Assembly: GCA_963730185.1 (NCBI GenBank)
Contig: CAVSQW010000002.1
Span: 64,001-128,000, forward strand
Length of the DNA stretch: 64,000 bases
DNA from: an uncultured Gemmatimonadales bacterium
GTDB lineage: Bacteria; Gemmatimonadota; Gemmatimonadetes; Gemmatimonadales; GWC2-71-9
Direction of reading: 5' to 3'
Shown here one piece after another: positions 16,975-32,838 of this stretch. Positions within the stretch are counted from its first letter, which is position 1, and each line of letters opens with the position of its first letter. The notes beneath the pieces were generated by a model. That model did no database searches, was not told the DNA's origin, and saw only the letters and a program-made list of their open reading frames with translations. The position numbers were made by a program, and so were the translations under genes.

Positions 16975-17340
16975 ATGAGCGAGACACCAGCATCCCGGGC
17001 GGTCGTGTGCCAGGCGGGGGGGCAGCGCTTCGCGTTGGCGCTGGAAGACGTGCGCGAAGTTTGCACGGACGTACTGGTGGTCCCGATGCCGGGAGTTGCA
17101 GCTCCGGTCGAGGGTGTCGCGAATGTTCGCGGGACGGTGGTGACCGTGGTGCGCGCCGCCGACCTGCTGGGCGTGACGCCGACCCGATCGGGGCCCTCGC
17201 CGTGGCTGGTCGTTCTCCGATTTCGGGACGGACGAGTGGCCCTCGGCGTCGAGGACATCGAAGATCTGGCGCCGGTCGGGATCGGCTTGAGTCGATTGGC
17301 GGTCGACGCACACCTCGGTCCGCTGTTTGGATCGCGCTAA
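16975..17340 (+). CDS. cheW: CheW-like coupling protein (short, divergent)
   Basis: FALALEDVREV, VPMPG...VEGVANVRGTVVTVV, VALGVEDI; GGAG RBS. Confidence 0.85.
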   Translation: MSETPASRAVVCQAGGQRFALALEDVREVCTDVLVVPMPGVAAPVEGVANVRGTVVTVVRAADLLGVTPTRSGPSPWLVVLRFRDGRVALGVEDIEDLAPVGIGLSRLAVDAHLGPLFGSR

Positions 17341-17352
17341 CTGGAGGCTCTT

Positions 17353-17715
17353 GTGGGGCACACGGTTCTCGTTTGCGACGACGCGATGTTCATGCGGACT
17401 ATGATCGCCGACATCCTCACCCAAGCCGGGTTCGAGGTGGTGGGCGAAGCGGAGTCGGGTGAGCAGGCGCTCGCCCGGTACCGGGAGCTCAAGCCCGATC
17501 TGGTCACCATGGACATCGTGATGCCCAACATGGGCGGAATCGAGGCCGTCCGGGCCATCTGCAAGGAAGATCCGGAGGCCAAGATTCTGATGTGCAGCGC
17601 GATGGGACAGCAGGCCCTGGTGGTGGAGGCCATCCAGGCCGGCGCCAAGGACTTCGTCGTCAAACCCTTCCAGCCTTCCCGCGTTCTGGAGGCGGTTCAG
17701 CGGCTCCTGGGGTGA
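17353..17715 (+). CDS. cheY: Single-domain response regulator CheY (DifD/Bacillus-type)
   Basis: VCDDAMFMR, TMDIVMP phospho-Asp, CSAMGQ, KPF. Confidence 0.95.
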   Translation: MGHTVLVCDDAMFMRTMIADILTQAGFEVVGEAESGEQALARYRELKPDLVTMDIVMPNMGGIEAVRAICKEDPEAKILMCSAMGQQALVVEAIQAGAKDFVVKPFQPSRVLEAVQRLLG

Positions 17716-17722
17716 GCCCGCG

Positions 17723-19330
17723 GTGGATCTGAGCCGCTATACCGCCCTCTTCCTCGCTGACACCCGGGAGCATCTCGACCGGGCCAGCCGGATCTTGCTC
17801 GACTGGGAGCGCGAGCCTGGAACGCTCGAGCCGGTGGCCGAGCTGTTCCGGGCGTTCCACTCGGTCAAAGGCTCGGCGGCCACGATGGAGTACACGGCCC
17901 TGGCCGACCTGGCGCATGCCGCCGAGCACCTGCTCGACGCCGTCCGGAAGGGTGACCTCGGGCCGTCGCGGGCGGTGGTGAGCCTGCTGCTTCGAGCGGT
18001 CGACGTGCTGGAGCGGGGCGCGGAGCTGGTGGTGGCCGGCGAAGCGGTGCCGGACGCGCCGGCGCTGGTGGGGGTCCTCGAGCGGATGGTTGCGTCCGGG
18101 GCGCCGCCGGCGCCCGCCGAGCCCCCGCTGGAGCGCCGGACCCCGACCCGCGTCCCCCGGCCCTCGGCCCGCTTTACCCTGTCCGCGGTCCGGGTCGACC
18201 GGAGCCGGCTGGACGAGCTCCTCCACCGGGCGGCCGAGCTGGTGGTGGCGCGGAATCGGCTGGACGGGCTCGTCGCCAGGAGCAGCGACCCCGAGCTCGA
18301 GGCGGTCGCCGGCCAGGTCGGGACCTTGGCCCGGTCGATGCACGCCGGAGTGCTCCGGGCCCGGCTGGCCCCGGTCGCTGAGCTCTTCGACCGGCTGCCC
18401 CGGGTGGCCCGGGACCTGGGGCAGTCGCTCGATCGGGAGGTGGAGCTCAAGCTTCGGAGCGACGGGATCGAGTTGGATCGCGGGATGCTGGAGGAGTTGC
18501 TCGACCCGCTGGTGCACTTGGTGCGGAACGCGGTCGATCACGGCATCGAGCCCCCCGCCGAGCGGCTGCTCGCGGGCAAGCCGCCCGAGGGGCGGCTTCT
18601 CCTCAGCGCCTCGCGGGAGCGGGAGTTCGTCACCGTGCGTCTAGCCGACGACGGACGGGGCATCGACCGCGACGCGGTCGCCCGGCGGGCCGAAGAGGCC
18701 GGACTTCGGCCGGCCGGCCGGCCGCCGCCCGACGACCACGAGCTCCTCGGGCTGCTGGCTCGGCCCGGGTTCACGCTCCGGCACGAGGTCACCTCGATCT
18801 CGGGACGTGGCGTCGGGATGGACGTGGTGCTGAGCACCGTGCGCAGCCTGGGCGGCCAGGTCGAGGTGAGCTCGGAGCCCGGACAGGGCACCACCTTCAC
18901 GCTGACCCTGCCGCTCACCACCGCGATTCAGCGGGTGCTCCTGGTGGGGGCGGCTGGCGAGCGGTACGCGATCCCCTTTCGGATCGTGGCCGAAGCGGTG
19001 CGGGGGCCCGGGCCGGCGGCGACCGAAACGACCGGGGGGCGGTTTAGCTTTCGGGATCGCTCGTTGCCGATGGTGGACCTGGCCCGCGCGACCGGGCTGA
19101 AGGGAGCGACGGCCGGGCGGGTGCGTCCGATGCTGGTGCTCGAATGGGGGACCCGGCAGGGCGCGCTGGCGGTCGACGCCGTGCTGGGGCAGCTGGACGT
19201 GGTGATCGAGCGGGTGGAGGCGCCGGTCGGCCTGCCCGCCTGGGTGAGCGGTGCGACCATTCTTGCCGACGGGTCGCCCGCACTGGTGCTGGATCCAACC
19301 GCCCTGTTCCAGGCGGAGGCCTCGCGATGA
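17723..19330 (+). CDS. cheA: Chemosensory histidine kinase CheA (Hpt-dimerisation-HATPase-CheW; no P2)
   Basis: FRAFHSVKG, HLVRNAVDHGIE, DDGRG, SGRGVGMDVV, GATILADG. Confidence 0.95.
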   Translation: MDLSRYTALFLADTREHLDRASRILLDWEREPGTLEPVAELFRAFHSVKGSAATMEYTALADLAHAAEHLLDAVRKGDLGPSRAVVSLLLRAVDVLERGAELVVAGEAVPDAPALVGVLERMVASGAPPAPAEPPLERRTPTRVPRPSARFTLSAVRVDRSRLDELLHRAAELVVARNRLDGLVARSSDPELEAVAGQVGTLARSMHAGVLRARLAPVAELFDRLPRVARDLGQSLDREVELKLRSDGIELDRGMLEELLDPLVHLVRNAVDHGIEPPAERLLAGKPPEGRLLLSASREREFVTVRLADDGRGIDRDAVARRAEEAGLRPAGRPPPDDHELLGLLARPGFTLRHEVTSISGRGVGMDVVLSTVRSLGGQVEVSSEPGQGTTFTLTLPLTTAIQRVLLVGAAGERYAIPFRIVAEAVRGPGPAATETTGGRFSFRDRSLPMVDLARATGLKGATAGRVRPMLVLEWGTRQGALAVDAVLGQLDVVIERVEAPVGLPAWVSGATILADGSPALVLDPTALFQAEASR

Positions 19331-19950
19331 TGGATGCTTCGAAGCTGACCGACGTGGAGCGCGACGCGCTGCGCGAGATCGCCAACATCGGGGCCGGGCA
19401 CGCGGCCACGGCCCTGTCGCAGATGACGGGTCGCCGGATCATGATCGACGTGCCCGAGGTCTCGGTCAAGCGGCTGGAGGAGGCCAGCGATCTGATCGGT
19501 CCGCCCGACACGATCATCGCCGCCGTGCTGATGCACATGATGGGCGACATGACCGGCCGCACCCTCCTGGTCCTGCCCGAGGGGAGCGCCCGCGCCCTCT
19601 GCGCCATCCTGCTCCGCAACGCGGCCCAGGACGGTCCCGGGTTCACCGACATGCAGCGCTCCACCGTGATGGAGACCGGCAACATCCTCTGCAGCGCGTA
19701 CCTCAACGCGCTCTCCGACTTCATGGGGATGATGCTGCTCCCGTCGGTGCCGGCCCTGGTGGTCGATCAAGCCGGCGCCGTGCTCACCACGGCCTATCTC
19801 AACTTCGGCCACGCCCGCGATCACGTGATCTGCGTCGAGACCTCGTTCCGGATCGACGGCTCGCCCGAGCAGCTGAGCGGCCAGTTCATCCTGATGCCGG
19901 ACGTCGCGTCGTTGGCGGCGATCTTCGACGCGATCCGTCTCCCCCGGTAG
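19327..19950 (+). CDS. cheC: CheC-family CheY-P phosphatase
   Basis: DALREIANIGAG and STVMETGNIL (two E-x-x-N active-site motifs). Confidence 0.93.
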   Translation: MMDASKLTDVERDALREIANIGAGHAATALSQMTGRRIMIDVPEVSVKRLEEASDLIGPPDTIIAAVLMHMMGDMTGRTLLVLPEGSARALCAILLRNAAQDGPGFTDMQRSTVMETGNILCSAYLNALSDFMGMMLLPSVPALVVDQAGAVLTTAYLNFGHARDHVICVETSFRIDGSPEQLSGQFILMPDVASLAAIFDAIRLPR

Positions 19951-19954
19951 GCGG

Positions 19955-22627
19955 ATGACGGGGTCCGGGTCGTCGGAGCGGGAGCTCGGTGTCCTGCGCT
20001 CCCTCGCGCGGCGGATCGATCCGTCGGACCCGGGCGCGCACAACAACCTCGGGGTGCTCTACTACGAGCGCGGGATGGTGCCCGAGGCGATCGCCGCGTT
20101 CGCCCGGGCGCTCGAGCTCGATCCGCACATGCGGGTGGCCCAGGACAACCTCGAGGCCGTCCAGCGCGAGACCGGCTTCTACGACCGCCGGATCCACGAG
20201 CTTCGAGAGCAGGTGCTCCGCCAGCCGTCCGACCGCCAGCTGAAGCTCGAGCTCGGCCGGGCCTATCTCGCCCTGGGGCAGTTCGACCGGGCGGCCGAGC
20301 AGTTCGAGGATCTGCTCAAGGGGCACCCCAACGACGGTACCGCCCTGGTGCAGCTTGGTCTGGTCGAGCACGCGCGGGGCCGCCAGGAGACCGCCACCGG
20401 CTGGTTCGAGCGGGCCTGCGAGGTGGATCCCAAGAGCACCGTCGCCCGGCTCTACCTCGGCCAGGCCCTCTACAACCGGGGCCTGGTGGACGCCGCCCTC
20501 GCGGTGCTGAGCGAGGCCGCCGCCCTCAATCCCGACCACGCCGACGTCCAGTACCTGCTCGGCTTCGTGTACGGCGACCTCGGGTATCACGACGCCGCCC
20601 GCGCCGCCACCCGCCGGGCCATCGGGCTCAATCCGTCGCTGGGGACCGCGCAGACCAACCTCCGGATCGGGGGCCGGCCGAACCCGTCGGCCCCCGACCC
20701 GCCTCGGGCCCCGGTTCGGGTCGACCAGTCGGGCGGCGAAGCCCATCTCCACCTGGCCGAAGCGTTTCGGCGGCGCGGGTATCTGGTCGAGGCTCTCCGG
20801 GAGTACCGGCTGGCGCACGAGAGCGGGGAAGACCCCCGGGCCGCGCTCGAGGGCATGGCCGAGATCTATCTCCTCAAGCGGGAGACCCGGAACGCCCTGG
20901 AGCTCTACGACCGGCTGCTGGCCGAGGCGCCCGACGCGGCCAAGCTCTGGACCGAGCGCGGGGTGGTCCTCCACCAGGCCGGCCGCCGGGACGAGGCCCG
21001 GGCGGCCTACGATCGGGCCCTCGAGGCCGACCCGGGTTACGCGCTGGCCTGGAACGACCTCGGCGTGCTCCGGGCCGGCGACTCCGACCCCGGCCCGGCC
21101 GCCGAGGCGTTCGAGGCCGCCTTGGGCCGGCGCCCCGACTTCGTGGCCGCCCGGCTCAACCTCGCCCTCCTCCACTTCCAGCGGCAGCGGCTCCAGCTCG
21201 CCCTGGAGGGCTACCGGGCGGTGCTGGCCGAGGAGGCCGAGCACCCGGTGGCCTGGAATGGGGTCGGCCTGGTCCTGATGGAGCTCAAGCGCTACGCCGA
21301 TGCCCGGAACGCCTTCGGGCGGGCGGTCGAGGCCGACCCCGACTCCGCCGCGGCCCACTACAACCTCGGGTTCGCCCTGAGCCAGCTCGGCGCCTTCGAC
21401 GACGCCCTCCGCGAGACCCGCCGCGCCCTGGAGCTCGATCCGTTCTACGTACCCCAGAAGTTCGCCCTCTCGATCGAGCTCCAGCTCACCGAGTCGCTCC
21501 TCCCGATCGCTCCCTCGCTGGTGGGCGACGTGGCCGCCGACGCCGCGGCCGAGGACTTCAGCTTCGACCCCGCCGCCCTCGACGAGCTATTCGTCGAGCT
21601 GGCGCCCGGCGAGTCGGCCGCGCCGGTGGCACCGGTCGATCCCTACTCCCTGGTCCGCGACCTGGTCGGGAAGGGGCTCCTGGAGTCGGCCACGGCGGAG
21701 GTGCACCGGGTGCTCCGGCGGGGGGGGCCGGCCGGTCCGGGGATCGCGCTGCTCGGGACGATCTTCGCCAAGCGGGGCCTTCACGGCGAAGCCCTGGAAC
21801 GGTTCCGCGAAGCCCGCCGTGAGTCGCCCGACGATGCCGGTATCCTCCTCGGCGAAGCGACCTCGCTCCTCGCCCTGGGCCGCTCCCGCGAGGCGGCCGA
21901 GACCGCCGACGAGCTGGTCCGGCGCCGCCCCGACGACGCCGAGGCCCTGGTGGTTCGGGCCCGGGCCCGGCTGGCCGAGGGCGATCTAGGCGGCGCCCAG
22001 GACGACGCGCTCGGCGCCCTCGCGGCGGCGCCGGGCCGGGCCGACCTGCTGGTGCTTCGGGGCGTGGTCGCCCGGCGCCTCAACGACCCCGAGGAGGCGC
22101 TCGATGCGTTCCGGGGGGCGGTCGACCTGGAGCCCGACCTGGTCCAGGCCTGGTACGAGATCGGGATGGTGGAGGAGGAGCGCCGTGATCCGGCCGCGGC
22201 CCGCGCGGCCTACGAACGCGCCCTCGCCATCCTGCCGACCTATCTCGAAGCGGGGTTGGCCCTGGCCGAACTGCATCGCCGGCAGGGGCGCACCGGGGAC
22301 GCGGTCCGGCTGCTGGTCGACCTCCTCCTGGTGGAGCCCTACGCCTTCGACGCGCTCCTCCTGCTGGGTCGCACGCTGGCCGACGAACGCCGCCACCAAG
22401 ATGCCGTGGTGGCCTTCAACCGGGTCCTCCAGTTCTTGCCCGAGCACACGGTCGCCCGCTTCTATCGGGGCGTGTCGCTCAACGCCCTCGGGCGGTTCGA
22501 CCTGGCTCTGGCCGATTGGGATGAGACGCTCCGGCTCGCCCCGACCGGTCCGCTCGCGGCGGCCGCCCGGGCCCAGGCCCGCTCCACCCGGGACCTCCTC
22601 CACATCCTGCAACCGGTGGAGGTGTAG
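19955..22627 (+). CDS. Large cytoplasmic TPR protein (890 aa)
   Basis: Recurrent AHNNLG/AWNDLG/AHYNLG/ALELDP TPR signatures along the whole length; no signal peptide. Confidence 0.9.
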   Translation: MTGSGSSERELGVLRSLARRIDPSDPGAHNNLGVLYYERGMVPEAIAAFARALELDPHMRVAQDNLEAVQRETGFYDRRIHELREQVLRQPSDRQLKLELGRAYLALGQFDRAAEQFEDLLKGHPNDGTALVQLGLVEHARGRQETATGWFERACEVDPKSTVARLYLGQALYNRGLVDAALAVLSEAAALNPDHADVQYLLGFVYGDLGYHDAARAATRRAIGLNPSLGTAQTNLRIGGRPNPSAPDPPRAPVRVDQSGGEAHLHLAEAFRRRGYLVEALREYRLAHESGEDPRAALEGMAEIYLLKRETRNALELYDRLLAEAPDAAKLWTERGVVLHQAGRRDEARAAYDRALEADPGYALAWNDLGVLRAGDSDPGPAAEAFEAALGRRPDFVAARLNLALLHFQRQRLQLALEGYRAVLAEEAEHPVAWNGVGLVLMELKRYADARNAFGRAVEADPDSAAAHYNLGFALSQLGAFDDALRETRRALELDPFYVPQKFALSIELQLTESLLPIAPSLVGDVAADAAAEDFSFDPAALDELFVELAPGESAAPVAPVDPYSLVRDLVGKGLLESATAEVHRVLRRGGPAGPGIALLGTIFAKRGLHGEALERFREARRESPDDAGILLGEATSLLALGRSREAAETADELVRRRPDDAEALVVRARARLAEGDLGGAQDDALGALAAAPGRADLLVLRGVVARRLNDPEEALDAFRGAVDLEPDLVQAWYEIGMVEEERRDPAAARAAYERALAILPTYLEAGLALAELHRRQGRTGDAVRLLVDLLLVEPYAFDALLLLGRTLADERRHQDAVVAFNRVLQFLPEHTVARFYRGVSLNALGRFDLALADWDETLRLAPTGPLAAAARAQARSTRDLLHILQPVEV

Positions 22628-23779
22628 GTGGCGATCCAGGGTCCGCTCCGCGAGCTCGGCATCCACGACGTCTTCCAGCTCCTCGATCTGGGCCGGAAGA
22701 CCGGGTTGCTCCGGATCGTGTCCGAACTCCGCCAGAACGAGGGCACGATCTGGTTCCACGAGGCCGCGGTGGTCGGCGCCACCATCCGCTCCAACCCGCA
22801 TCTGCTGGGGCAGCAGCTGCTTCGGGCGGGCAAGGTCCGGAACGAGGACCTGGCCCGGGCTGAGGCGCTCAAGGACGGCGGCGACGGCCGCCGGATCGGC
22901 GAGATGCTGGTGTCGTTCGGCGCGATCACCGCGCGGGAGCTCGCCACCCAGGTCCGGCTCCAGATCGAGGAGGTCGTGTTCACCCTGCTCGGGTGGTCGG
23001 AGGGCCACTTCATCTTCGAGGAGCGGAGCGCCGACGCCATCCCGCGCGAGGCCGACGTCCGGATCTCGGTCGAGTCGCTCCTGCTCGAGGCGGCCCGCCG
23101 GATCGACGAGTGGTCCCGGATCCGCACCCGGATCCCGCACCTCGGCGTGATTCCCCGGCTGGCGCCCTCCCAACAGGAGGAGGCCGGCTCGTTGGTGTTG
23201 ACGCCGTTCGAATGGCGGGTGCTGGCGGCGTCCGACGGCGTGCGCGACGTCCAGGCCCTCGCCGTCACCATGAGCGAGCCGGAGTTCGACGTGGCTCGGG
23301 CCATCTTCGGGCTGGCTTCCGCCGGGGTGGTGATCGTCCGCGACCCGGTGGAGGAGTCGGCGGCGGCGGCCCCGCGGGAGGACGCTGGGCCCCTGTTGGC
23401 GGAAGCCGAGCGGTTGGTGAAGGCCGGGAACTTCGAGGCGGCCCGGAGCATGGCGAGCGCCGCCTTCGACGCCTTCCCGAACGACCCCCGTCCGTATCTT
23501 TTGGTAGGACGAACGTTGATCGCTGAGCAGCGCTTCGACGAGGCGGAAGCGCCGCTTCGGGAGGCGGTCCGGCTCGATCCGGCGTCACCTCGGGCCCTGC
23601 GGCTGCTCTCCTGGTCGCTGCTTGGCACCGGTCGCCTCGGCGAAGCGGTGCACGGATTCGAGGCCTGGCTGGCGCTCCCGTCGCTCGGCCCCGAGGAGGA
23701 ACGGCGGGTCGCGTCGGTCGGCGCGGCCATTCCGGCGGCCCGGCAGTTGGCCGCGTTGCTCAGAGGCTCGCATGACTGA
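22628..23779 (+). CDS. DUF4388 (PatA-N) + degenerate MshEN + TPR protein
   Basis: MAIQGPLRELGIHDVFQLLDLGRKTG, WSEGHFIF, LLLEAARRIDEW; C-terminal TPRs. Confidence 0.85.
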   Translation: MAIQGPLRELGIHDVFQLLDLGRKTGLLRIVSELRQNEGTIWFHEAAVVGATIRSNPHLLGQQLLRAGKVRNEDLARAEALKDGGDGRRIGEMLVSFGAITARELATQVRLQIEEVVFTLLGWSEGHFIFEERSADAIPREADVRISVESLLLEAARRIDEWSRIRTRIPHLGVIPRLAPSQQEEAGSLVLTPFEWRVLAASDGVRDVQALAVTMSEPEFDVARAIFGLASAGVVIVRDPVEESAAAAPREDAGPLLAEAERLVKAGNFEAARSMASAAFDAFPNDPRPYLLVGRTLIAEQRFDEAEAPLREAVRLDPASPRALRLLSWSLLGTGRLGEAVHGFEAWLALPSLGPEEERRVASVGAAIPAARQLAALLRGSHD

Positions 23780-24563
23780 CGACATCGCGACGATGACCGT
23801 GCAGCTGGCGCAGGATCCGACCAGCCTGGTGTTTCTGCCGCTGGCCGAGGCGCTCCGCGGCCGGGGACAGCTGGACGCCGCCCTCACGGTCGCCCTCCGT
23901 GGCCTGAGCCGCTATCCCGAGGTGGCCGACGCCTACGACTTGGTCGCTCGGATCCAGTGCGATCGGGGCGACGGCGACGCCGCCTTCGATGCCTGGACCA
24001 ATGTGCTCCGCCTCGCGCCCGACCATCTGGGCGCGCACAAGGGGCTCGCCTTTCTCTTCTACCGCGGCGGCGAGGTCACCCGGAGTCTCCGCCACCTGAC
24101 CCGGGCGCTCGAGATCGCGCCCGGCGACGCCAGCCTCACCGCCGCGGTCGACCGGATTCGGATCCAGGCCGAGGCCGGCCTCGAGCGGCCCAGCGTGCCG
24201 GACCAGGCGGCGCCGCAGGCGGTCCGCCGGGGGGGCGACCAGGCCACCCTGCTGTTCGATCAGCAGGGGCGGGTGCTCCGGGGCGACGTGGTGCGGCCCG
24301 ACGGCAGCGACGCCAGCGAGGCCGTCGCCGCAGGCCTGGCCGGCGTGAGTCGGGAGGCCGAGCGCACCGCCCGGATGCTCGGCCTGGGCGAATGGCGGGC
24401 CATCGCGGTCGAGGGCGGGCCGGTCAACTACGAGATTCGGAGCCCGTCCGAGGAGACCCTCCTGCTCCTGATGCGGGGGCGCGAGGTGCCGGCCGGTCGG
24501 CTGTCGCGGATCGCCGATCGCGCCGTCGCTGACTCGGTGCGCTGGCTGGAGGAACTGGAATGA
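23772..24563 (+). CDS. TPR + roadblock/LC7-like fusion protein
   Basis: N-terminal TPRs (FLPLAEALR, AHKGLAFLFY); C-terminal LLFDQQGRVL...AAGLAGVSREAERTARMLGLGEW roadblock pattern. Confidence 0.7.
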   Translation: MTDDIATMTVQLAQDPTSLVFLPLAEALRGRGQLDAALTVALRGLSRYPEVADAYDLVARIQCDRGDGDAAFDAWTNVLRLAPDHLGAHKGLAFLFYRGGEVTRSLRHLTRALEIAPGDASLTAAVDRIRIQAEAGLERPSVPDQAAPQAVRRGGDQATLLFDQQGRVLRGDVVRPDGSDASEAVAAGLAGVSREAERTARMLGLGEWRAIAVEGGPVNYEIRSPSEETLLLLMRGREVPAGRLSRIADRAVADSVRWLEELE

Positions 24564-24910
24564 CCTTTCCCGAACAGGCGGTCCTCGATGAGGTCACCCG
24601 GCTGCCGGGAGTCCGGAGCGCGCTCCTGGTCGGGCTCGAGGACGGGATCGTGGTGGCCGAGACCGCGCTCGAGGGAGAGGACACCCGGGCGGCGGCGGCC
24701 CTGGCGGCCCGGCTGGCCCAGCGCCTGGCCGAGCTGCCTCGAACGGTCGGCCATCCCGCCCTCACCATGATCCTGCTTCAGGGCTCGGAGGGACAGCTCT
24801 TCGCTGCCCCGGGTGGCGACGGCTTGCTGCTGGTCGCGGTGGCGGACAACGACGTGAACATCGGCGAGGTGCGGCTCGCCCTGCTCGACGCCGCGGGGCG
24901 GCTCAGCTGA
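24560..24910 (+). CDS. Roadblock/LC7 protein (MglB/MglC-like)
   Basis: LPGVRSALLVGLEDGIVV, AAALAA, LVAVAD..VNIGEVRL. Confidence 0.85.
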   Translation: MTFPEQAVLDEVTRLPGVRSALLVGLEDGIVVAETALEGEDTRAAAALAARLAQRLAELPRTVGHPALTMILLQGSEGQLFAAPGGDGLLLVAVADNDVNIGEVRLALLDAAGRLS

Positions 24911-25371
24911 TGCGAGCCATCGAGCCCTGGGTCGAACGGCCGCTGGCGGGCTTCGTGGAGGAGTCCGGGGCGCGGATCGCGGTCCTGATGACCGGAGCGG
25001 GCCAGGTGGTGGCCCAACACGGCTTCACCCGGTCGCTCGACCTGATGTCGGCCGCGGCGCTCGGCGCCGGCATCGTGGCGTCGACCCGCGAGATGGCTCG
25101 CGAACTGGGTTCGGACGGGTTCGGAGCGATCGTTCACCAGGGCCAGCAGCTGGGCGTGTTTCTCGCCCCGTTCGATCTCCCCGCCGCGTCGTGGATCGGC
25201 CTGGTCGTGTTCGGGCCGGAGACCTCACTCGGGCTGGTGCAGCTCTTCTTCGATCAGATGGTGGACGGGCTGACCCGGGCGGCGCCGCGCGAGGCGCCCG
25301 CGCGCCAGGTCTTGCCCGAGGCCTTCGAAGACGAGCTGAACGCCAGCCTGCGCGCCCTCTTTGGACGGTGA
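24910..25371 (+). CDS. mglB: MglB-type roadblock GAP
   Basis: GQVVAQHG, AALGAGIVASTREMA, HQG, VVF..ETSLGLV; directly upstream of mglA. Confidence 0.8.
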   Translation: MRAIEPWVERPLAGFVEESGARIAVLMTGAGQVVAQHGFTRSLDLMSAAALGAGIVASTREMARELGSDGFGAIVHQGQQLGVFLAPFDLPAASWIGLVVFGPETSLGLVQLFFDQMVDGLTRAAPREAPARQVLPEAFEDELNASLRALFGR

Positions 25372-25374
25372 CCC

Positions 25375-25977
25375 ATGCCGCTCGTCAACTTCACCGCCCG
25401 CGAAATCACCTGCAAGCTGGTCTACTACGGACCGGGCCGCTGCGGCAAGACGACCAATCTCCAGTACATTCATGGCCGGGTGCCGGAGCACCGCCGGGGT
25501 CGGATGGTCTCGCTGGCCACCCAGTCCGATCGCACCCTCTTCTTCGACTTCCTGCCCCTCGAGCTGGGGGTGATCTCCGGGTTCACCACCCGATTCCAGC
25601 TCTACACCGTGCCGGGTCAGGTCTACTACAACGCCACCCGCCGGCTGGTGCTCCAGGGCGCCGACGGGGTGGTGTTCGTGGTCGACAGCCAGGCCCGCCG
25701 GTTCGACGACAACATCGAGAGCTTCCAGAACCTGCAGGAGAATTTCCTGGATCAGGGGGTCGACATCCGCCAGGTGCCGCTGGTGCTCCAGTACAACAAG
25801 CAGGACCTGCCCGCCGATCTCGTCCTCGGTCCCTCCGATCTCGACGAGACCTTCAACTTCCGCTCCGTTCCCAGCCTGCCGGCCGACGCCCTGCACGGCA
25901 CCGGCGTGTTCGAGACGCTCAAGGCGCTGTCCACGCTCGTCCTGCAACGGCTCGCCGCGCGGCCGCCGACGCTGTGA
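25375..25977 (+). CDS. mglA: MglA-family small Ras-like GTPase
   Basis: KLVYYGPGRCGKTTNL, DRTLFFDFLP, LYTVPGQVYY, QYNKQD. Confidence 0.95.
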   Translation: MPLVNFTAREITCKLVYYGPGRCGKTTNLQYIHGRVPEHRRGRMVSLATQSDRTLFFDFLPLELGVISGFTTRFQLYTVPGQVYYNATRRLVLQGADGVVFVVDSQARRFDDNIESFQNLQENFLDQGVDIRQVPLVLQYNKQDLPADLVLGPSDLDETFNFRSVPSLPADALHGTGVFETLKALSTLVLQRLAARPPTL

Positions 25978-27950
25978 CGGACCCGTTCGCTTTGTTCGTC
26001 ACCGATCCGGCCAATGCGGCGGCGGTGGCAGCGGCCCGGACGGTCGCCGATGCGAGCCGTACCCTCTACGGCCCCCTGGTGATGGTGGGAATCCGGGGCG
26101 CCGGGAAGTCGCATCTTCTCCGCGCCGTGCGTGACCGGGCCGCCGCCCAGTCGCCCCCCCGGCGGGCGGAGCTCATCTCGCTCCTTCGGCTCGCCGACGT
26201 GGTGCACGCCCGCGGCTTGGGCGAGGGGGGATCGGCGCTTCGCGACCGGCTGCTCGACGCCGACCTGCTGCTGATCGACGATTTCGAGGCGGTGACCCGC
26301 CATCTGCCGGTGCAGGCCTTCGTCTTCGACCTTCTCGAATCGCGGATCACCAAGGGCCGCGAGGTCGTGGTCGCGAGCGCCCTGCCGGTCGCCGGGCTGG
26401 CCGGTCTCGACGCCCGGCTTCGCCGCCGGCTCGAGGCAGGCACCGTCGTCACGCTCGGGCTTCCCGGCTCCGACGCCAGGCAGGTGATCCTGGACCGGCG
26501 GGTGGCCGAAAGCGGCGTTCGCCTTGCGCCGGCGGTGGTCGAGGCCCTGGCCCACCAGCCGTTCCGGTCGATCAAGGAATACCTGGGCGCGCTCCAGCGG
26601 GTCCTCGCCTTCCAGCAAACGACGCCCGAAGCGCTCTCGGCGGCCGACGCGCTGGCGTTGCTCGGCCTCGAGAGCACCAACGGGCGCCTCGGTCCGGCCG
26701 AGGCCGGACCAGCCCCCGCCGCTGCCGACGCACCCCAGGAGCCGCCCAGCCTCGAGGAAGCGGAGTTCGACGCCTTCCTCTCCGAGGTCGTGGCCAACGT
26801 TTCGCATCAGTTCGACCGGTGGCGGGGCCGGATTCGCGAAGCCATCGCCCACTGGCAGTCGCGGGGCCTCCGGGCCCGTCGGCTGGAGCGGGCCCTGACC
26901 GACGAGATGGGCGGCGACCCGGAGCCGGTGATCAGCGACTTCGGCCGCGACGCCACCGAGCTGGAGCGGCTGGTGGCCGAGGTTCGAGCCATCGCGCCCG
27001 ACCTGGCCGGCGCCGAGGTCCTCCGTGATCCCGATCAGCTCCCGGCCGCCCGCGAGCTGGTGGACGAGGCCCGGCGCCGGCGGGCCCCGCTGTCGGCCCC
27101 GTTGCCGGAGCTCACCCTCGACACCCTCGGCGTGGGCCCCTCCAACCGGCTGGCCGTCGAGGCGGCCCGCGCCCGGGTGGCCGACGCCGGCGGGCAGGAC
27201 AACCCCCTGGTCGTGGTCGGGGCCAGCGGGTTGGGCAAGACCCATCTGCTCCACGGGATCGGTAACGCGCTGATCGAGCGACAGGTCTCACCCATCGCTT
27301 GCCTGAGCGCCCACAGCTTCCTGGGCGAAGTCTCCGCCCTCCGGACCGCGGAGGAGACCGCCGCCTGGCGGACCCGCTATCAGTGGGTGGCCGGCCTCCT
27401 GGTCGACGATCTTCACGTGCTCGCCCACGAGGGCCGCGCCCAGGAGGAGCTGCTCCAGATCTTCGGGGCGCTCGCCGACGGCGGCCGCCCCCTGGTCTTC
27501 GCGTCGGCCCGCCGGCTGAGCGAGCTCGAGGGCTTCGATCCCCGGCTCCTGACCCGGCTCGAGGCGGGCCTGGTGGTGGAGATCCTCCCGCCCGATCGAG
27601 AGGTGCGCCTGACCGTCGTCAAGGCGCTGCTGGCCGGCACTCCCATGGCCGACGACGCCGCGCTGATCGACTACCTCGCCGGCCGCCCGGCCGACTCCAT
27701 CCGGGCGGTGCAGGGGGCGGTGCATCGAGTGCTCGGTGAAGCGCGGGGCCAGCGGGTCACGCCCTCGCCCGCGCTGGCCCGCGAGGTGCTCGAGGTGGTC
27801 TTGTCCAAGGGCACCCGGCCGGGCCGGCGGAGCGCGACCCCGCGAGGGAGCGGGATCCTCTCGCCCGGGATGGGGGTGGTCCGAAGCCGGGAGAAGATGA
27901 TTCAGCGCTGGCCGCACCCGGCCGAGCGGCTGATGGTGGAGCTGCGCTGA
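25974..27950 (+). CDS. Tandem DnaA/Hda-type AAA+ ATPase lacking DnaA domains I and IV
   Basis: Module 1: GIRGAGKSHLL, LLLIDD, LDARLRRRL. Module 2: NPL..GASGLGKTHLL, LLVDD, QEEL, DPRLLTRL, SIRAVQGA. GTG start overlaps the mglA stop. Confidence 0.85.
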   Translation: MTDPFALFVTDPANAAAVAAARTVADASRTLYGPLVMVGIRGAGKSHLLRAVRDRAAAQSPPRRAELISLLRLADVVHARGLGEGGSALRDRLLDADLLLIDDFEAVTRHLPVQAFVFDLLESRITKGREVVVASALPVAGLAGLDARLRRRLEAGTVVTLGLPGSDARQVILDRRVAESGVRLAPAVVEALAHQPFRSIKEYLGALQRVLAFQQTTPEALSAADALALLGLESTNGRLGPAEAGPAPAAADAPQEPPSLEEAEFDAFLSEVVANVSHQFDRWRGRIREAIAHWQSRGLRARRLERALTDEMGGDPEPVISDFGRDATELERLVAEVRAIAPDLAGAEVLRDPDQLPAARELVDEARRRRAPLSAPLPELTLDTLGVGPSNRLAVEAARARVADAGGQDNPLVVVGASGLGKTHLLHGIGNALIERQVSPIACLSAHSFLGEVSALRTAEETAAWRTRYQWVAGLLVDDLHVLAHEGRAQEELLQIFGALADGGRPLVFASARRLSELEGFDPRLLTRLEAGLVVEILPPDREVRLTVVKALLAGTPMADDAALIDYLAGRPADSIRAVQGAVHRVLGEARGQRVTPSPALAREVLEVVLSKGTRPGRRSATPRGSGILSPGMGVVRSREKMIQRWPHPAERLMVELR

Positions 27951-29566
27951 TGGCGATCAAGGGCAGCCTCAAGGAGGCCAGCCTCCCCGACGTGATCCAG
28001 CTGCTCTTCTTCGGGCGGCGGACGGGGTGTCTGGCGCTGGCCGATCGGCAGCGCTTCGGCTCGATCTTCTTCGAGGACGGCTGGATCGCCTACGCGACGA
28101 TCGTGAACCGGCGCGATCGGCTGGGCGACATCCTGCTCCGGGCCGGGACCATCAGCCGGGAGCAGCTCGACCAGGCCCTCGCCATGCAACAGGTCTCGCG
28201 GGGCCGGCGTTTGGGCGAGATCCTGGTCAGCCTGGGCGCCCTGGCGCCGGAAGAGCTCCGCCGGCTGCTCCGCTTTCAGATCGAGGAAGCGGTCTACGCG
28301 CTCTTCTCCTGGTCGACCGGCACCTTCACCTTCGATGCCGGCGTGCGCCCCGAATGGGAGGGCGATCTCGACCGGATCAACCCCGAAAACCTGTTGCTCG
28401 AGGGTGCCCGCCGGGTGGACGAGTGGAGCCTGATCGAGAAGAAGATTCCGTCGTTCGACGCCGTCTTCTCCGTCGACCGGGGCGCGCTGGCCAACCCCGC
28501 GCTCAGCTTCACCGAGGCGCAGCGCCGGATCCTGCCGCTGCTCGACGGCGAGCGCGACACCCGCGAGGTCATCGACGCCTCCGGCCTCTCCGATTTCGAG
28601 GCCGCGCAGGCGCTGTTCGGGCTGATCACCGCGGGGCTGGCCCAGCGGACCGGAACCTCGTCCAAGGCGGCGCCGTCGCGGCTGCTCGAGGCCCAGCTCG
28701 ACGAGCACCGAAACCTGGGCGTGGCGTTCCTCCGAAGCGACATGCTCGACGAGGCCTCCCGCGAGTTCCGCCGGGTCATGGAGCTGCGGCCGTCCGAAGG
28801 AACCTCGCCATTCTATCTGGGCGTCATCGCCGCCCGCCAGGACAACTGGCCCGACGCCGTCACCCTCTTCCGGCAGGCGCTCGACCGGAGCGGCCCCCGC
28901 GGCGCGATCCTTCACAACCTGGCCGTGGCCCTCGAGGCGATCGGCCGGACCGACCAGGCCGACGCCATCGGCGCCGAGGCCGCGAGCCGGCTGCCGGACG
29001 ACCCCAGGATCTTCCTCGACTGGGGGATCCTGGCTCTCGAGCGCGACGAGCCCCAGGTGGCCTGGGCCCGGCTGGATCGCGCCCGCGAGCTCTTCGGAGT
29101 GGCGGCCCCGCCGATCTGGTTCTGGGCTGCCGCGCTGACCCAGGTGGCCCTCGACCAGATCGAATCCGCCGTGAGCCTGGCGCGCGAAGGCGTCACGGCC
29201 TTTCCTCAGCACAGCGTGCTCCGGAACAACTACGCCGTCCTGCTCGAGGCCACCGGTGCCTTTACCGAGGCGCAGGTCCTCCTCGAGGAGATCATCGGCG
29301 ACGAGCCGTCGCAGCCCCAGCCGTTCAAGAACCTGGGCGATCTCTACTACCGGGGCGGCCGCTACGAGGACGCCGCCCGGGTTTACGAGCGGGCGGCCAC
29401 GATCGCCCCCGAGCTGGGCGACGATCTCTTCTTCAAACTCGGGAACCTCGCCTTCCGGGGGCGGGAAGCGTCCCGGGCCCGCGAGTTCTGGGAGCGGGCC
29501 CTGGCGCTCAACCCGGGGCACCAGCTGGCCCGGGCCAACCTCGAGCTCTTGCCGGTGTCCGCATGA
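27950..29566 (+). CDS. DUF4388 (PatA-N) + MshEN c-di-GMP-binding motif + TPR protein
   Basis: MAIKGSLKEASLPDVIQLL; RLGDILLRAGTISREQLDQALAMQ-x6-RLGEILVSLGALAPEELRRLLRFQ; C-terminal TPRs. Confidence 0.87.
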   Translation: MAIKGSLKEASLPDVIQLLFFGRRTGCLALADRQRFGSIFFEDGWIAYATIVNRRDRLGDILLRAGTISREQLDQALAMQQVSRGRRLGEILVSLGALAPEELRRLLRFQIEEAVYALFSWSTGTFTFDAGVRPEWEGDLDRINPENLLLEGARRVDEWSLIEKKIPSFDAVFSVDRGALANPALSFTEAQRRILPLLDGERDTREVIDASGLSDFEAAQALFGLITAGLAQRTGTSSKAAPSRLLEAQLDEHRNLGVAFLRSDMLDEASREFRRVMELRPSEGTSPFYLGVIAARQDNWPDAVTLFRQALDRSGPRGAILHNLAVALEAIGRTDQADAIGAEAASRLPDDPRIFLDWGILALERDEPQVAWARLDRARELFGVAAPPIWFWAAALTQVALDQIESAVSLAREGVTAFPQHSVLRNNYAVLLEATGAFTEAQVLLEEIIGDEPSQPQPFKNLGDLYYRGGRYEDAARVYERAATIAPELGDDLFFKLGNLAFRGREASRAREFWERALALNPGHQLARANLELLPVSA

Positions 29567-30366
29567 GCCTCGTCGACCATCCCGCCTTCGGTCGGGTGAC
29601 CGAGCACCTCGAGCGGCTGGGCGCCGGGGCGTTCGTGCTGTACAAGACGCCCTGCCTGGAGCGGCGGCTCGCCTCCCGGATCCGGGCCCGCCGCCAGCAC
29701 GGCCTGGCCGAGTACGCCGCCCTGCTCGACAGCGATGCCGGTGAGCGCGACCGGCTGGTGAGGGCGCTCTCGATCGGCGTCACCAGCTTCTTCCGGAATC
29801 CGACGGCGTGGCGCCGGCTCGCCGAGCTGCTCGAGGAGCGGAAGCCGGCGGGCGGGCTCCGAGGCTGGAGCGCCGGCTGCGCGAGCGGCGAGGAGGCCTG
29901 GTCGCTGGCCATGGTCCTCTCCGATCGGGCCCTCACCGGGTCAGGCGACCCGACCGCCTTCCGGGTCGACGCCACCGATCTCGACCTGGCCGGGCTGGCC
30001 CTCGGTCGGATGGGCGAGTATCCCGGGCAGGTAACCGCGCCCCTTCGGCTGGCCGGCGACCTTCGCCACGGTCGGCTGGTGGGTGACCGGTTCCTGGTGG
30101 AGCCGGCGCTCCGGGGGCGAGTCCACTTCCGCCGAGACGATCTCACCGAGTCGCGGGTGCGCGGGCCGTACGACGTGGTCACCTGCCGGAACGTGCTCAT
30201 CTACTTTGGCGACGAGGGGCAGTCGCGGGCCTTGGCCGCGCTGGTTCGCTCCCTCGCGCCGGGCGGCCTCCTGATGCTCGGCCGGGCCGAGCTCGCCGCC
30301 CGATCGGTTGCCGAGGAGCTGGAGATCGTCGACTCGCGGGAACGGATCTACCGGAGGGTCGAATGA
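29563..30366 (+). CDS. cheR: CheR-type protein-glutamate methyltransferase
   Basis: GVTSFFRN, WSAGCASGEEAWSLAM, ATDLD, CRNVLIYF. Confidence 0.93.
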   Translation: MSLVDHPAFGRVTEHLERLGAGAFVLYKTPCLERRLASRIRARRQHGLAEYAALLDSDAGERDRLVRALSIGVTSFFRNPTAWRRLAELLEERKPAGGLRGWSAGCASGEEAWSLAMVLSDRALTGSGDPTAFRVDATDLDLAGLALGRMGEYPGQVTAPLRLAGDLRHGRLVGDRFLVEPALRGRVHFRRDDLTESRVRGPYDVVTCRNVLIYFGDEGQSRALAALVRSLAPGGLLMLGRAELAARSVAEELEIVDSRERIYRRVE

Positions 30367-30851
30367 CGGGGCTCCGGGTCGTCGTCCGGGTGAGCGGCCT
30401 GATCGTGGCCGAGGCGCCGGCGACGCTCGTGGCGCTCGCCCTCGGGAGCTGCGTCGCGATCGCCCTCTACGATCCCCAGGCCAAGATCGGCGGCATGGCC
30501 CACGTGCTCCTGCCCTCGGCGGCGATGGGACGGGACCAGGGACAACCTGGCCGCTTCGCCCAGACCGCGGTGCCCACCCTCCTGGAACGGCTGATTGCCC
30601 GGGGTGCGCGGGCGCCGGCCATCACCGCCCGGCTGGTCGGCGGGGCCAGCATGTTCACCTCGCTGGCCCCTCCGGGCACCATCCAAATGGGCGACCGGAA
30701 CGTGGTGGCGGCCCGCGAGGCGCTCCACCGCAACGGCATCCGCCTGGTCGGTGAAGCGGTCGGCGGCGACTTCGGCCGGACGGCCGAGTTCGACGTGGAG
30801 ACCGGCCGGATCCGGGTCGCCTCGTACCTCCGCGGCGAGCAGCTGCTGTGA
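30363..30851 (+). CDS. cheD: CheD chemoreceptor glutamine deamidase
   Basis: LGSCVAIALYD, GGMAHVLLP, GGASMF, MGDRN, VGG..GR. Confidence 0.93.
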   Translation: MTGLRVVVRVSGLIVAEAPATLVALALGSCVAIALYDPQAKIGGMAHVLLPSAAMGRDQGQPGRFAQTAVPTLLERLIARGARAPAITARLVGGASMFTSLAPPGTIQMGDRNVVAAREALHRNGIRLVGEAVGGDFGRTAEFDVETGRIRVASYLRGEQLL

Positions 30852-31726
30852 CCGACGTCCGACGGACGGCCTGGCTGGCCGCGCTGGTCGAGGAGCTCGA
30901 CGCGATCGACCGCGAGCTCGAGGCTGGCGCCGCCGATCGGGCTCGTCTCAAGACCCGGATCGTCGCCACCTTCCGCCAAGTGGAGGGGAGCCTGTCGGAG
31001 CTCGGCGGCCTCAAGGACCGGATCAAAGGGCAGGTGGACCGCTTCAAGCAGCTCGCCACCAGCGGCCCCGGCCACCCCGACCCGGCCGAGGCGGGGCCGA
31101 TGCCGGTGCGGGCCGACCACCTCGGCGCCTCGACCTTCATCGAGAAGGGCTGGAGCCTGATCTCGGCGGGCGACCCCGCTGGTGCGATCGACGCGCTCCA
31201 CCGAGCGCTCGAGCTCGCCCCCGACGACGTCCACGCGAAGGCCCTCGTTGGATGGGCCCAGATGCTCGGGGAGCACTATGACGACGCCCTGGTGACCTTC
31301 TCCGAGGTGCTGGCCCGCGAGCCCGCCCACGCGCTGGCCCGGGTGAACGTGGGCTTCATCTGCCTCAAGAAGCGAATCTTCGGCGAGGCGATCGAGCACC
31401 TCTCCCGGGTCATCCGGCTCGACAACGACCGGAAGGCCACGCTGTACGCCCACTACTATCTGGGACTCGTCTACCTCGAGCGGGCGATGTACCTCGACGC
31501 CGAGACCTTTCTCACCAAGGCCATCGCGCTGGGGCCGAATCTGATCGAGGCGTACTACGACTTGGGGCGGGCCCGCTGGTTCGCGGGCGATCAGGAAGGG
31601 GCCCGCGCCACCTGGCGCAAAGGGGCCAAGGCCAACAAATATGCTCCGTGGGCCAAGCGTTGCCAGGAACTCCTCGAAGCCGTCGAGCGCGGCGAGTCGG
31701 TGCCGCCCTCCTCGCCGGCGGCCTGA
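30848..31726 (+). CDS. Coiled-coil + TPR protein
   Basis: Heptad-rich N-terminus; ARVNVG, AHYYLGLVY, AYYDLG TPRs. Confidence 0.85.
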   Translation: MTDVRRTAWLAALVEELDAIDRELEAGAADRARLKTRIVATFRQVEGSLSELGGLKDRIKGQVDRFKQLATSGPGHPDPAEAGPMPVRADHLGASTFIEKGWSLISAGDPAGAIDALHRALELAPDDVHAKALVGWAQMLGEHYDDALVTFSEVLAREPAHALARVNVGFICLKKRIFGEAIEHLSRVIRLDNDRKATLYAHYYLGLVYLERAMYLDAETFLTKAIALGPNLIEAYYDLGRARWFAGDQEGARATWRKGAKANKYAPWAKRCQELLEAVERGESVPPSSPAA

Positions 31727-32634
31727 TCGTCGCCGGGCCCGTCCGGGCCCAGGCGCAGCGTGAGATCGTCCGGGTAGGGCAGGCGACCGCGCTGGCGGCT
31801 CCGTCCGATCTCGATCTGGCGGTGGCCCTGGCCGAGCGAGCCGACCAGCCGGCCGAGTATTACGGCCTGGGACGGCGGTCGATCGGCCCCGTCGCGATCG
31901 CCGTGGTGCGGGGCCGGGGCGGGTTCGACTCGGTCTCGCGGGGCCGGATCCCGTCGTGGGGCGCGGGGCTCGCCCTGCCGGCCGCCCGCTTCATCGCGAT
32001 CCGGGCCGATGCCGGCGATCCGTTCGACATCCTCCGGCACGAGCTGGCCCATCTGGCCCTCCGGCAGGCGGTCAAGGGTCGCGTCCCGCTCTGGTTCGAC
32101 GAGGGGTACGCGGCCGTGTCCGCGGGCGAGTTCGGGCGGCTCGAGTCGTTGGAGCTCAACCTCAGCCTGGCGCTGGGGCGGGTGCCGTCGCTGGATGCGC
32201 TGGATGCCGGGTTACGAGGCGCGGAGGCCACCGCCACCACCGCCTATGCCCTGGCGGCTACGGCGGTGCTGGATCTGGCCCGGCGCAATCCCACTGGGAC
32301 CCTCACCCCCCTCCTTGCCCGGCTAGGCGCGGCGGTGCCGTTCGACTCGGCGGTCGTGCTCACGACCGGGCTCCGGATCGAAGGATTCGAGGAGGCCTGG
32401 CAGAAGGACGTCAAACGGCGCTACAGTCTTGGCCTCTGGCTCCTGGGTGGGGGGCTCTGGGCGGTGGCGGGTCTCCTGGTGGTGATCGCCGCGCGGATGC
32501 GGCGGCGGCGGGAGGCGCCCCGCCGGGCGGCGCTGGACGCCGGCTGGGTCGTTCCGCCGGGAGAGGACGAGCCGGCTGCGCAGCTTGAAACGCCAGTGGC
32601 ACGGCCGCTTGACCGTGACCGGCCACCGTCATAG
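31648..32634 (+). CDS. Membrane-anchored peptidase MA-like (gluzincin) protein; start uncertain
   Basis: Signal-like N-terminus, HELAH...PLWFDEG, C-terminal TM followed by RRRR. Confidence 0.7.
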   Translation: MGQALPGTPRSRRARRVGAALLAGGLIVAGPVRAQAQREIVRVGQATALAAPSDLDLAVALAERADQPAEYYGLGRRSIGPVAIAVVRGRGGFDSVSRGRIPSWGAGLALPAARFIAIRADAGDPFDILRHELAHLALRQAVKGRVPLWFDEGYAAVSAGEFGRLESLELNLSLALGRVPSLDALDAGLRGAEATATTAYALAATAVLDLARRNPTGTLTPLLARLGAAVPFDSAVVLTTGLRIEGFEEAWQKDVKRRYSLGLWLLGGGLWAVAGLLVVIAARMRRRREAPRRAALDAGWVVPPGEDEPAAQLETPVARPLDRDRPPS

Positions 32635-32645
32635 ACTTAAAGTCT
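32609..32645 (+). promoter_or_regulatory. Sigma70-like promoter with overlapping palindrome
   Basis: TTGACC-17 nt-TAGACT; AGACTT-A-AAGTCT at 32633-32645; ATG at 32647. Confidence 0.55.
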
Positions 32646-32646: not shown

Positions 32647-32838
32647 ATGGCGCAAACGGATGCGCAGTCCAAGCCGCGGCGCGGGCTTTTCGGTACGCGC
32701 AACCTGCTCGCGTTCGGCGCGGCAGGGTTGTGTCTGATCGTGGGATACGTCGTGCTGTCAGCGGGTCAGGCGAGCCTCGCTGCAGTCCTGCTCGTCGTTG
32801 GGTATTGTGTGCTGTTTCCCTTGGCCATCGCTCTGTAG
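32647..32838 (+). CDS. Small two-TM membrane protein (DUF3098-like)
   Basis: FGTRN..TM..GY..L, LA.VLLVVGYCVLFPLAI. Confidence 0.65.
   Translation: MAQTDAQSKPRRGLFGTRNLLAFGAAGLCLIVGYVVLSAGQASLAAVLLVVGYCVLFPLAIAL

Follow-up and report, generated by a model that had tools for sequence, protein, structure and literature searches.

A conserved operon of chemosensory, MglA and DnaA-derived ATPase genes in Gemmatimonadota with a possible role in type IV pilus polarity

The stretch of DNA analysed here, called the window below, comprises 64,000 nucleotides from an uncultured Gemmatimonadales bacterium (GCA_963730185.1, contig CAVSQW010000002.1, positions 64,001 to 128,000). At 16975..32634 it carries 16 unbroken in-frame open reading frames (ORFs) on the + strand, none with an internal stop, which Pfam and NCBIfam assign, in order, to CheW, CheY, CheA, CheC, a TPR protein, a DUF4388-TPR protein, a TPR-roadblock protein, two roadblock proteins, MglA, a tandem Bac_DnaA ATPase and then a second DUF4388-TPR protein, CheR, CheD, another TPR protein and a Peptidase_MA_2 protein. 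An earlier reading of the letters alone (the sequence-only reading) had described 16 co-directional genes, a set of overlapping or abutting junctions and che genes on both flanks, and the ORF check, Pfam and NCBIfam bear out all of it: spacing is -4, 0, -8, -4 and -1 nucleotides at junctions 19327, 22628, 23772, 24560 and 24910, and -4, -1, -4, -4 and -4 at 25974, 27950, 29563, 30363 and 30848. The remaining five junctions measure +12, +7, +4, +3 and -79, the last counted from the longest peptidase ORF. The operon is real and conserved across two phyla, and it combines known families with an apparently undescribed ATPase family in an arrangement for which we found partial descriptions only.

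The chemosensory genes open the operon with cheW1 (16975..17340, 121 residues), cheY (17353..17715, 120 residues), cheA (17723..19330, 535 residues, with Hpt, dimerisation, HATPase_c and CheW domains) and the phosphatase gene cheC (19327..19950, 207 residues, with both E-x-x-N motifs), and they resume beyond the central genes with cheR (29563..30366, 267 residues) and cheD (30363..30851, 162 residues, with its Cys and His motifs). Key residues are present in CheA, CheY, CheC and CheD, and D54 and K104 of CheY are invariant in 53 orthologues. Systems of class F1 are defined by CheC and CheD together with CheA, CheW and CheY (PMC10746217; like the other papers cited here by PMC number or DOI, it is cited for the part of its text that was available), and both CheC and CheD score above their Pfam cut-offs; the best NCBIfam matches are CheA_Halo, CheC_Thtogales and CheD_Thtga, each under its own cut-off. 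The receptors have 44H length. Across 18 loci, 12 of them measurable, the distance from tip to C-terminus is 155-161 residues in 11 and 173 in one, the class being assigned by length and not by a class hidden Markov model; this set consists of the receptors of five FlhA-negative genomes in which this CheA is the only one, plus both receptors of the source genome. Three complete receptors from a second phylum (see below) measure 161-162 residues. Receptors of the 44H class serve F9 systems too (PMC10746217). Taken together, CheC, CheD and receptor length fit an F1-type (Dif-like) assignment for the chemosensory part.

The centre of the operon begins with TPR1 (19955..22627, 890 residues, TPR throughout) and DUF4388a (22628..23779, 383 residues), in which a PATAN domain (DUF4388) with a degenerate MshEN-like insert is followed by TPRs. 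Next come a TPR-roadblock fusion (23772..24563, 263 residues), the roadblock/LC7 protein RB2 (24560..24910, 116 residues), the roadblock protein RB3 (24910..25371, 153 residues) and mglA (25375..25977, 200 residues), which encodes a Ras-like GTPase. MglA aligns end to end with a solved MglA (239 bits over residues 1-193). This similarity along the whole protein, together with the P-loop (G1), DRTLFF motif with the intrinsic Arg, PGQ and NKxD, places it in Group 1, and the motifs are intact and conserved in 90 orthologues except those of genus g11. The three roadblocks of the sequence-only reading stand as far as RB2 and RB3 are concerned; the first falls below the Pfam cut-off in the window (18.1 against 23 bits), and its orthologue in the second phylum passes with 38.6 bits. 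RB3, whose gene lies directly upstream of mglA, matches a solved MglB (E 1e-8) and reaches 34 bits against an NCBIfam MglB cut-off of 200; by sequence it is a distant MglB homologue and a candidate GTPase-activating protein (GAP). For TPR1, we infer a candidate role as MglA effector resembling that of SgmX. Genus g11 (L105, L106, L110, L111, L112) departs from this pattern: its MglA lacks DRTLFF and PGQ and has an altered P-loop, its TPR1 is reduced to some 210-280 matched residues, and cheR, cheD and cheB are gone, with the three roadblocks, the ATPase and DUF4388b retained. The g11 MglA is likely a pseudo-GTPase. A second mglB-mglA pair follows dnaX-ybaB-recR in the source genome (G000:C15:298326-299675), and a second mglA occurs in nearly all Gemmatimonadales sampled.

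The gene after mglA (25974..27950, 658 residues) encodes a DnaA-derived tandem AAA+ ATPase that ends in a tail of the form REK..W.WP. Its structural model (mean predicted local distance difference test score, pLDDT, 89.7) shows two AAA+ modules around a helical middle domain and, at the C-terminus, a disordered stretch and a short helix. The best matches in sequence and fold are to DnaA domain III (29-32% identity, root-mean-square deviation 2.2-3.0 Å). Both modules keep Walker A and B and their arginines. Among 123 tandem forms, K45 is conserved in 122, D102 in 122, R152 in 102 and R/K201 in 121 for the first module, and K422 in 123, D478 in 123, R528 in 116 and R577 in 116 for the second; in the first module of the window protein, Ala replaces the sensor I Asp and Lys the sensor II Arg. 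The tandem DnaA-like ATPase proposed from sequence is thereby confirmed, with two Bac_DnaA stretches and the key residues of both modules present. Pfam finds no match in it to the N-terminal domain I or the DNA-binding domain IV of DnaA, and it stays below the cut-offs of both the DnaA family TIGR00362 (280 against 344 bits) and the Hda family TIGR03420 (121 against 195 bits). We rejected a role as replication initiator. A separate full dnaA-like gene lies on contig C9 of the source genome. The tandem form had no match on plasmids, and its Atlas matches were Gemmatimonadota clusters and DnaA fragments. Basal lineages and the second phylum carry a single AAA+ module (L047, L049, L053, L059, L097, L099, L151-L161), with the middle helical domain and, where inspected, the C-terminal W-P tail retained. 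The second module seems to have arisen later, by duplication.

The ATPase gene is followed by DUF4388b (27950..29566, 538 residues), a candidate hub in which a PATAN domain and an MshEN pair (residues 57-110) precede a TPR superhelix. The model comprises a small helix/strand domain and the superhelix at about residues 240-538, the part that the fold search covered. MshEN domains recognise cyclic di-GMP (c-di-GMP) through two 24-residue RLGxxLxxxGxIxxxxLxxxLxxQ motifs (PMC5013675). DUF4388b scores 65 bits against NF053729 (cut-off 38) and conserves R57 in 66/66 orthologues, G59 in 65/66, Q80 in 65/66, G89 in 64/66 and Q110 in 64/66; the spacer between its motifs is 6 residues as against 5. DUF4388a has no NF053729 match at E 1e-4, an Arg precedes LG in only 12/75 of its orthologues, and the window copy lacks that Arg and the first Gln. 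We therefore rejected DUF4388a as a c-di-GMP sensor, so that the MshEN scaffolds announced by the sequence-only reading reduce to one with an intact c-di-GMP motif and one with a degenerate motif. The source genome has 13 GGDEF matches. DUF4388b and the ATPase also share a pattern of loss. The ATPase is absent from 9 loci, in all of which DUF4388b matches its profile only to positions 462-486 of 538, and the MshEN insert is absent as well in 8 of the 9; on the tree, this co-loss corresponds to two events.

How widely is the arrangement conserved? Fetching with MglA gave 80 loci, of which 53 have operon neighbours in window order and 27 are mglA loci of other kinds. Among the matches listed for a sample of 120 Gemmatimonadota genomes, an operon-type mglA is the best one in 76; of these, 64 have cheA 5.1-7.8 kb upstream with contig and strand shared, 8 have it on another contig or elsewhere, and 4 have none. 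The operon was not found in the three families outside the class nor in most of families f6, f7 and f9. It went undetected, too, in four Gemmatimonadales genomes of 98-100% completeness (G041, G083, G087, G089), in which nothing matches the DUF4388b profile. The metagenome scan returned close relatives only, and no full DUF4388b orthologue was found in 41 genomes of the phylum of G125 or 41 of that of G123, where the profile matched N-terminal positions 1-268 alone. One contig (L014) bears the title Acidimicrobiia, but its operon is of the Gemmatimonadales type and the tree places it within Gemmatimonadales, which probably reflects a binning error.

The usual operon has 19 genes, with cheB-cheW2-cheW3 after cheD, and these three are present in 44 of the 49 metagenome loci spanning the site. 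They are missing from the window and from its closest relatives (L008, L172-L176). With cheB-cheW2-cheW3 gone, a CheA without the P2 segment that most relatives have, a short CheW (covering positions 2-90 of a 138-position profile) and a CheR that deviates at several positions kept in at least 90% of relatives, the window operon represents a simplified copy. The loss of P2 is ordinary, since over half of CheAs lack it (PMC10782961). The adaptation pair of CheR and CheB is incomplete in the window copy, which has CheR alone. The other CheB domains of the source genome lie within CheB/CheR-kinase fusions, and this genome is 82% complete, so that there may be a cheB elsewhere in it.

A distant locus (L059) led to a second phylum, represented by 19 genomes; the entries nearest to its proteins are named Ca. 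Edwardsbacteria or TA06. Here, the order mglA-ATPase-DUF4388b-cheR-cheD occurs in 11 of 12 mglA-centred regions, usually continuing into cheB-TPR2-cheW, and cheA-cheC-TPR1-DUF4388a-roadblocks lies upstream wherever the contig reaches. Protein identity to the window is 72% for CheY and 62% for MglA, and goes down to 24-39%. Gene order, for which a synteny check had been proposed, is thus conserved in relatives and beyond the phylum. An assembly artefact or chance was rejected because the order is kept in many independent assemblies, and a recent horizontal island because GC content resembles the rest of the window and the DUF4388b tree broadly follows families. One second-phylum locus has four extra genes between TPR1 and DUF4388a (L151:13673-16581), by eye a restriction-modification set.

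Budding occurs in Gemmatimonadota, and one may imagine a module for asymmetric division, budding or replication timing, in which the ATPase acts on DnaA or an origin complex in the way of Hda and the MglA module marks the growth pole. Descent of the ATPase from DnaA, with arginine fingers intact, would agree with this, as would the position of the Gemmatimonadota operon between divIVA-ileS-lspA-rluA and rsmH/dcw. That position, from which the sequence-only reading had derived an asymmetric cell cycle, is real in the window (divIVA lies 5 kb upstream of the operon, and rsmH, the start of the dcw cluster, 2.4 kb downstream). However, rluA, ileS, rsmH and the peptidase gene are all absent beside the operon in the second phylum, which makes the divIVA/dcw setting and the peptidase local features. 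The proposal is further weakened by the nine loci that lack the ATPase, by the four near-complete Gemmatimonadales named above, by the undetected DNA-binding domain and the separate dnaA-like gene, and by the loss of the ATPase together with parts of DUF4388b. We consider a cell-cycle role quite unlikely, and the idea that had been drawn from position is weakened.

The receptors of the source genome are encoded outside the operon. In the second phylum, 17 of the 19 genomes have, on the contig and strand of mglA and 4-17 kb downstream of it, two genes for methyl-accepting chemotaxis proteins (MCPs), and five operon-bearing Gemmatimonadota genomes with cheA broken or gone (G037, G042, G068, G107, G110) have no MCP match at all; both observations indicate that the receptors belong to the system. 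A recurring receptor type (L001, L128, L130, L134, L143) combines a multi-pass N-terminus without Pfam match, a GAF domain and a signalling domain of 44H length, and its N-terminal membrane domain gave one weak match to the second-phylum receptors (E 9e-7), on which we base no claim of common descent.

Which output do these receptors serve? It is conceivable that the operon is a flagellar chemotaxis pathway, at least in flagellated members such as the source genome, which carries a flagellar cluster and has its sole stand-alone CheW, CheC and CheD matches in the operon (cheW1, cheC, cheD). Five flagellated genomes (G021, G027, G029, G093, G105) show this CheA alone, and F1 systems usually drive flagella (PMC10746217). 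Yet, among the matches listed, FlhA is missing from 49 of the 64 genomes with linked cheA and mglA, and from all 19 of the second phylum, while CheY remains 89% conserved by column; FlhA is found in 9/55 and 11/28 genomes of the two main families. Moreover, a second cheA ends the flagellar cluster of the source genome. We regard a flagellar role as the least probable of the alternatives. The lone cheA of that cluster (G000:C2:59278-61308) lies 3 kb before the window and adjoins motAB, a GGDEF gene and a possible HDOD-type gene (labelled by eye), and neither cheW nor cheY nor a receptor gene was seen next to it.

Type IV pili are distributed differently. A survey of the phylum describes flagella as patchy and type IV pili as widespread (PMC10581226); PilT is matched in 117/121 Gemmatimonadota genomes and in 19/19 of the second phylum (4-7 matches each). 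The source genome has PilB-PilT-PilC-like genes and PilM. In 14 genomes of f6, f7 and f9 without CheA, PilT matches number 0-2, and G114, which has DUF4388b, shows 4; these genomes are kin and not independent. There are precedents for a link to the pilus motor: in Synechocystis, PilB1 and PilC are bound by PATAN domains (10.1101/2021.06.11.447907), and SgmX, a TPR protein, connects MglA with the localisation of PilB (PMC11580455). The same GTPase might direct an Agl-Glt-like gliding machine and its reversals instead of pili, since MglA controls both motility systems in Myxococcus; NF033768, the only myxobacterial gliding-associated family searched, has no match in the 82%-complete source genome, and control of gliding appears very unlikely to us. 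Of the pilus or gliding polarity suggested by the sequence-only reading, the pilus output fits the gene content, and the gliding half found no match in the one family searched.

Linkage of cheA and mglA, a gene order shared by two phyla, the scarcity of FlhA and the presence of PilT all count towards the reading we prefer, namely that the operon controls the polarity of type IV pili, through an old, vertically inherited pathway of non-flagellar F1 type wired to an MglA/roadblock switch. We give this reading, whose links derive from gene order, co-loss and analogy, a probability of about one half. At the level of sequence, membrane receptors of 44H length, CheW, CheA, CheY, CheC, CheD and CheR, joined in relatives by CheB, add up to a complete pathway. 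How might such a pathway work? We envision a scenario whereby receptors signal through CheW and CheA to produce CheY-phosphate, which would bind a PATAN scaffold, most likely DUF4388b. This protein might read c-di-GMP and hold the ATPase through its last TPRs, and the ATPase could then serve as an oligomerising or remodelling switch that acts on the scaffold complex rather than on DNA. MglA-GTP would act through TPR1 as its effector, with RB3 as GAP and the other roadblocks helping to set MglA. Conceivably, the pathway ends at the pilus motor (PilB/PilC) of one pole, and signals would then change twitching or adhesion in direction or amount. The window copy would represent a simplified version without CheB-based adaptation.

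Several observations weigh against this reading. PilT discriminates little, being near-universal in the phylum, operon-less genomes included, and the operon itself contains no pilus gene. TPR1 has generic TPR matches alone in Pfam and NCBIfam; the second mglB-mglA pair could be the real pilus regulator. Further points come from natural deletions, for which we fetched 40 regions picked to span families and odd cases, 39 of them operon-bearing. Every che gene is lost and the core kept in G107, G110 and G042; the che genes are kept with DUF4388b and TPR2 alone, mglA and roadblocks being lost, in G070 and G072; they persist without mglA in G050; and the three roadblocks are lost with mglA kept in G065, G090, G101, L062 and G092. 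Such separate loss of blocks argues against an obligate single machine. DUF4388b is present in all 39 operon-bearing G loci, and the twelfth of the second-phylum regions (L162) keeps che genes and mglA in the absence of both ATPase and DUF4388b, which argues against an obligate hub. Co-losses amount to two or three independent events only, and two of the nine loci with a shortened DUF4388b (L051, L109) lie near contig ends. The deletion pattern as a whole suggests three pairings, with DUF4388b as partner of both the ATPase and the che genes, and TPR1 as partner of MglA.

In the most integrated version, the operon would encode an undescribed kind of chemosensory system, one physical polarity machine for sensing, phosphorelay, MglA with its three roadblocks, a c-di-GMP scaffold and the ATPase; it would predate the split of the two phyla, the scaffold would be the direct target of CheY-phosphate, and shifting or resetting the MglA pole would fall to the ATPase. 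The single machine of the sequence-only reading is weakened by the loss of the che block, mglA or the ATPase in some lineages; we hold the most integrated version to be less likely than not. Alternatively, the operon may hold two modules that are co-regulated but separate: a Dif-like che pathway for another output, such as exopolysaccharide or adhesion, and a core of MglA, PATAN proteins and ATPase that is independent of CheY. Either block can be lost cleanly with the other kept, and the cheW-Y-A-C block, taken together with CheD, CheR and 44H receptors, is similar to matrix-linked Dif-like clusters (PMC2577667). Furthermore, PATAN-roadblock-mglA clusters without nearby che genes occur at Ignavibacteria and Zixiibacteriota loci (L065, L067, L076, L081), and such clusters are listed for many phyla (PMC4316618, Table S2). 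Against this stand the che genes flanking the core on both sides, an order shared by two phyla whose proteins are 24-72% identical, and the persistence of DUF4388b with the che genes when mglA and roadblocks are lost (G070, G072). We judge two separate modules to be unlikely.

Among known systems, Frz-MglA/MglB/RomR-SgmX-PilB of Myxococcus xanthus is similar: there, too, a cell with pili combines chemosensory signalling with a Group 1 MglA, roadblocks of MglB type and a large protein made of TPRs. FrzE is a CheA fused to a receiver domain. The CheA described here lacks a receiver (it has Hpt, dimerisation, HATPase_c and CheW domains only), and receptor lengths fit 44H and not 40H; identity with Frz was rejected on these grounds, even though the operon may work like Frz on MglA/MglB. 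Frz belongs to class ACF (PMC3441718), whereas our operon is F1-like with stand-alone CheY, CheC and CheD, and it includes no RomR-like receiver fusion as found in Myxococcus. In Myxococcus, mglA is not near its partners' genes (PMC4316618), whereas here it shares one operon with two PATAN-TPR proteins and an ATPase. Dif of M. xanthus and the Dif-like clusters of Geobacter share the non-flagellar CheA, CheW, CheY and CheC along with CheD (with CheR in Geobacter) and the 44H receptors; in the available text, however, no GTPase, roadblock, PATAN protein or ATPase is named for them, only 'genes with unidentified function' (PMC2577667). The canonical operon, unlike Dif, has CheB and three CheWs as well. 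In cyanobacterial Tax/PatA-type systems, chemosensory output reaches the pilus motor through a PATAN domain that carries a helical MshEN-like insert (10.1101/2021.06.11.447907); there, PATAN is fused to a receiver, whereas in our operon it is joined to TPRs, CheY has a gene of its own, and a GTPase and an ATPase are present besides. DnaA domain III and Hda resemble the ATPase in AAA+ fold and motifs, but the latter has one or two modules around an unrelated helical domain, a conserved tail and scores below both cut-offs.

PATAN-MglA(-MglB) gene neighbourhoods were reportedly noticed by Makarova in 2006. Later, Gemmatimonas aurantiaca GAU_1409 was entered as 'PATAN>MglA>-PATAN>' (Wuichet and Sogaard-Andersen 2014, PMC4316618, Table S2), a roadblock-less form like that of L062. 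This entry appears to be the core of our operon with che genes and ATPase unlisted. In that paper, supplementary file 3 contains neither 'CheA' nor 'CheY' (0 occurrences each), the main text as available has 'chemotaxis' 0 times, and no function is assigned. The available portions of PMC3441718, PMC10782961 and 10.64898/2026.05.11.724246 do not mention Gemmatimonadota. Our search, which left most subscription papers outside, found no account of the whole operon, in line with the earlier statement that no characterised system of this make-up was known; the PATAN-MglA-PATAN core is listed in the 2014 table.

What is known of how a chemosensory pathway flips MglA comes largely from Myxococcus; its genes for this are scattered, and the step from FrzZ to RomR is marked in a figure as not shown to be direct (PMC4316618). 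Here, a single operon gathers the candidate linkers, and deletions that occurred in nature hint at likely pairs among its parts. If the operon did encode one physical machine, it would represent a hard-wired version of the chemosensory-to-MglA link that is still unresolved in Myxococcus. The pilus-polarity reading also offers a testable job for the chief chemosensory system of a soil phylum that is abundant, mostly without flagella and represented in culture, and it adds a non-flagellar use of F1 outside the delta-proteobacteria. The DnaA-derived ATPases form a family without a DNA-binding domain, whose members databases name replication initiators.

At its 3' end, the operon continues with TPR2 (30848..31726, 292 residues), a helical N-terminal region followed by TPRs that is kept in both phyla, and with the Peptidase_MA_2 gene (31648..32634, HELAH motif), a neighbour in Gemmatimonadota only. 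The peptidase was rejected as a core part, being absent beside the second-phylum operon, and its gene probably lies outside the system proper. Upstream, yggS-divIVA-ileS-dksA-lspA-rluA runs into cheW with gaps of -71 to +10; these housekeeping genes are packed as tightly as the operon, so that its 5' edge shows no visible transcription boundary and the transcript may start further upstream. A scan for promoters and terminators, uninformative at 72% GC, saw no promoter-like site before cheW, one + strand site 3' of the operon (32609-32637) and one weak terminator-like site within the ATPase gene (2 such sites against 4.8 in shuffles). Beyond the peptidase gene lie a 63-residue hydrophobic ORF without Pfam match (32647-32835) and a conserved TPR gene flanked by tRNA-Val (32934-33007) and tRNA-Asp (34841-34915). 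Genes split by frame were seen outside the operon, in a pilB-like gene (C14:58-62 kb), one CheB/CheR fusion (C8:218 kb) and the first gene of the window (1-1166); these splits, none of which affects the operon, are possibly sequencing indels of the assembly.

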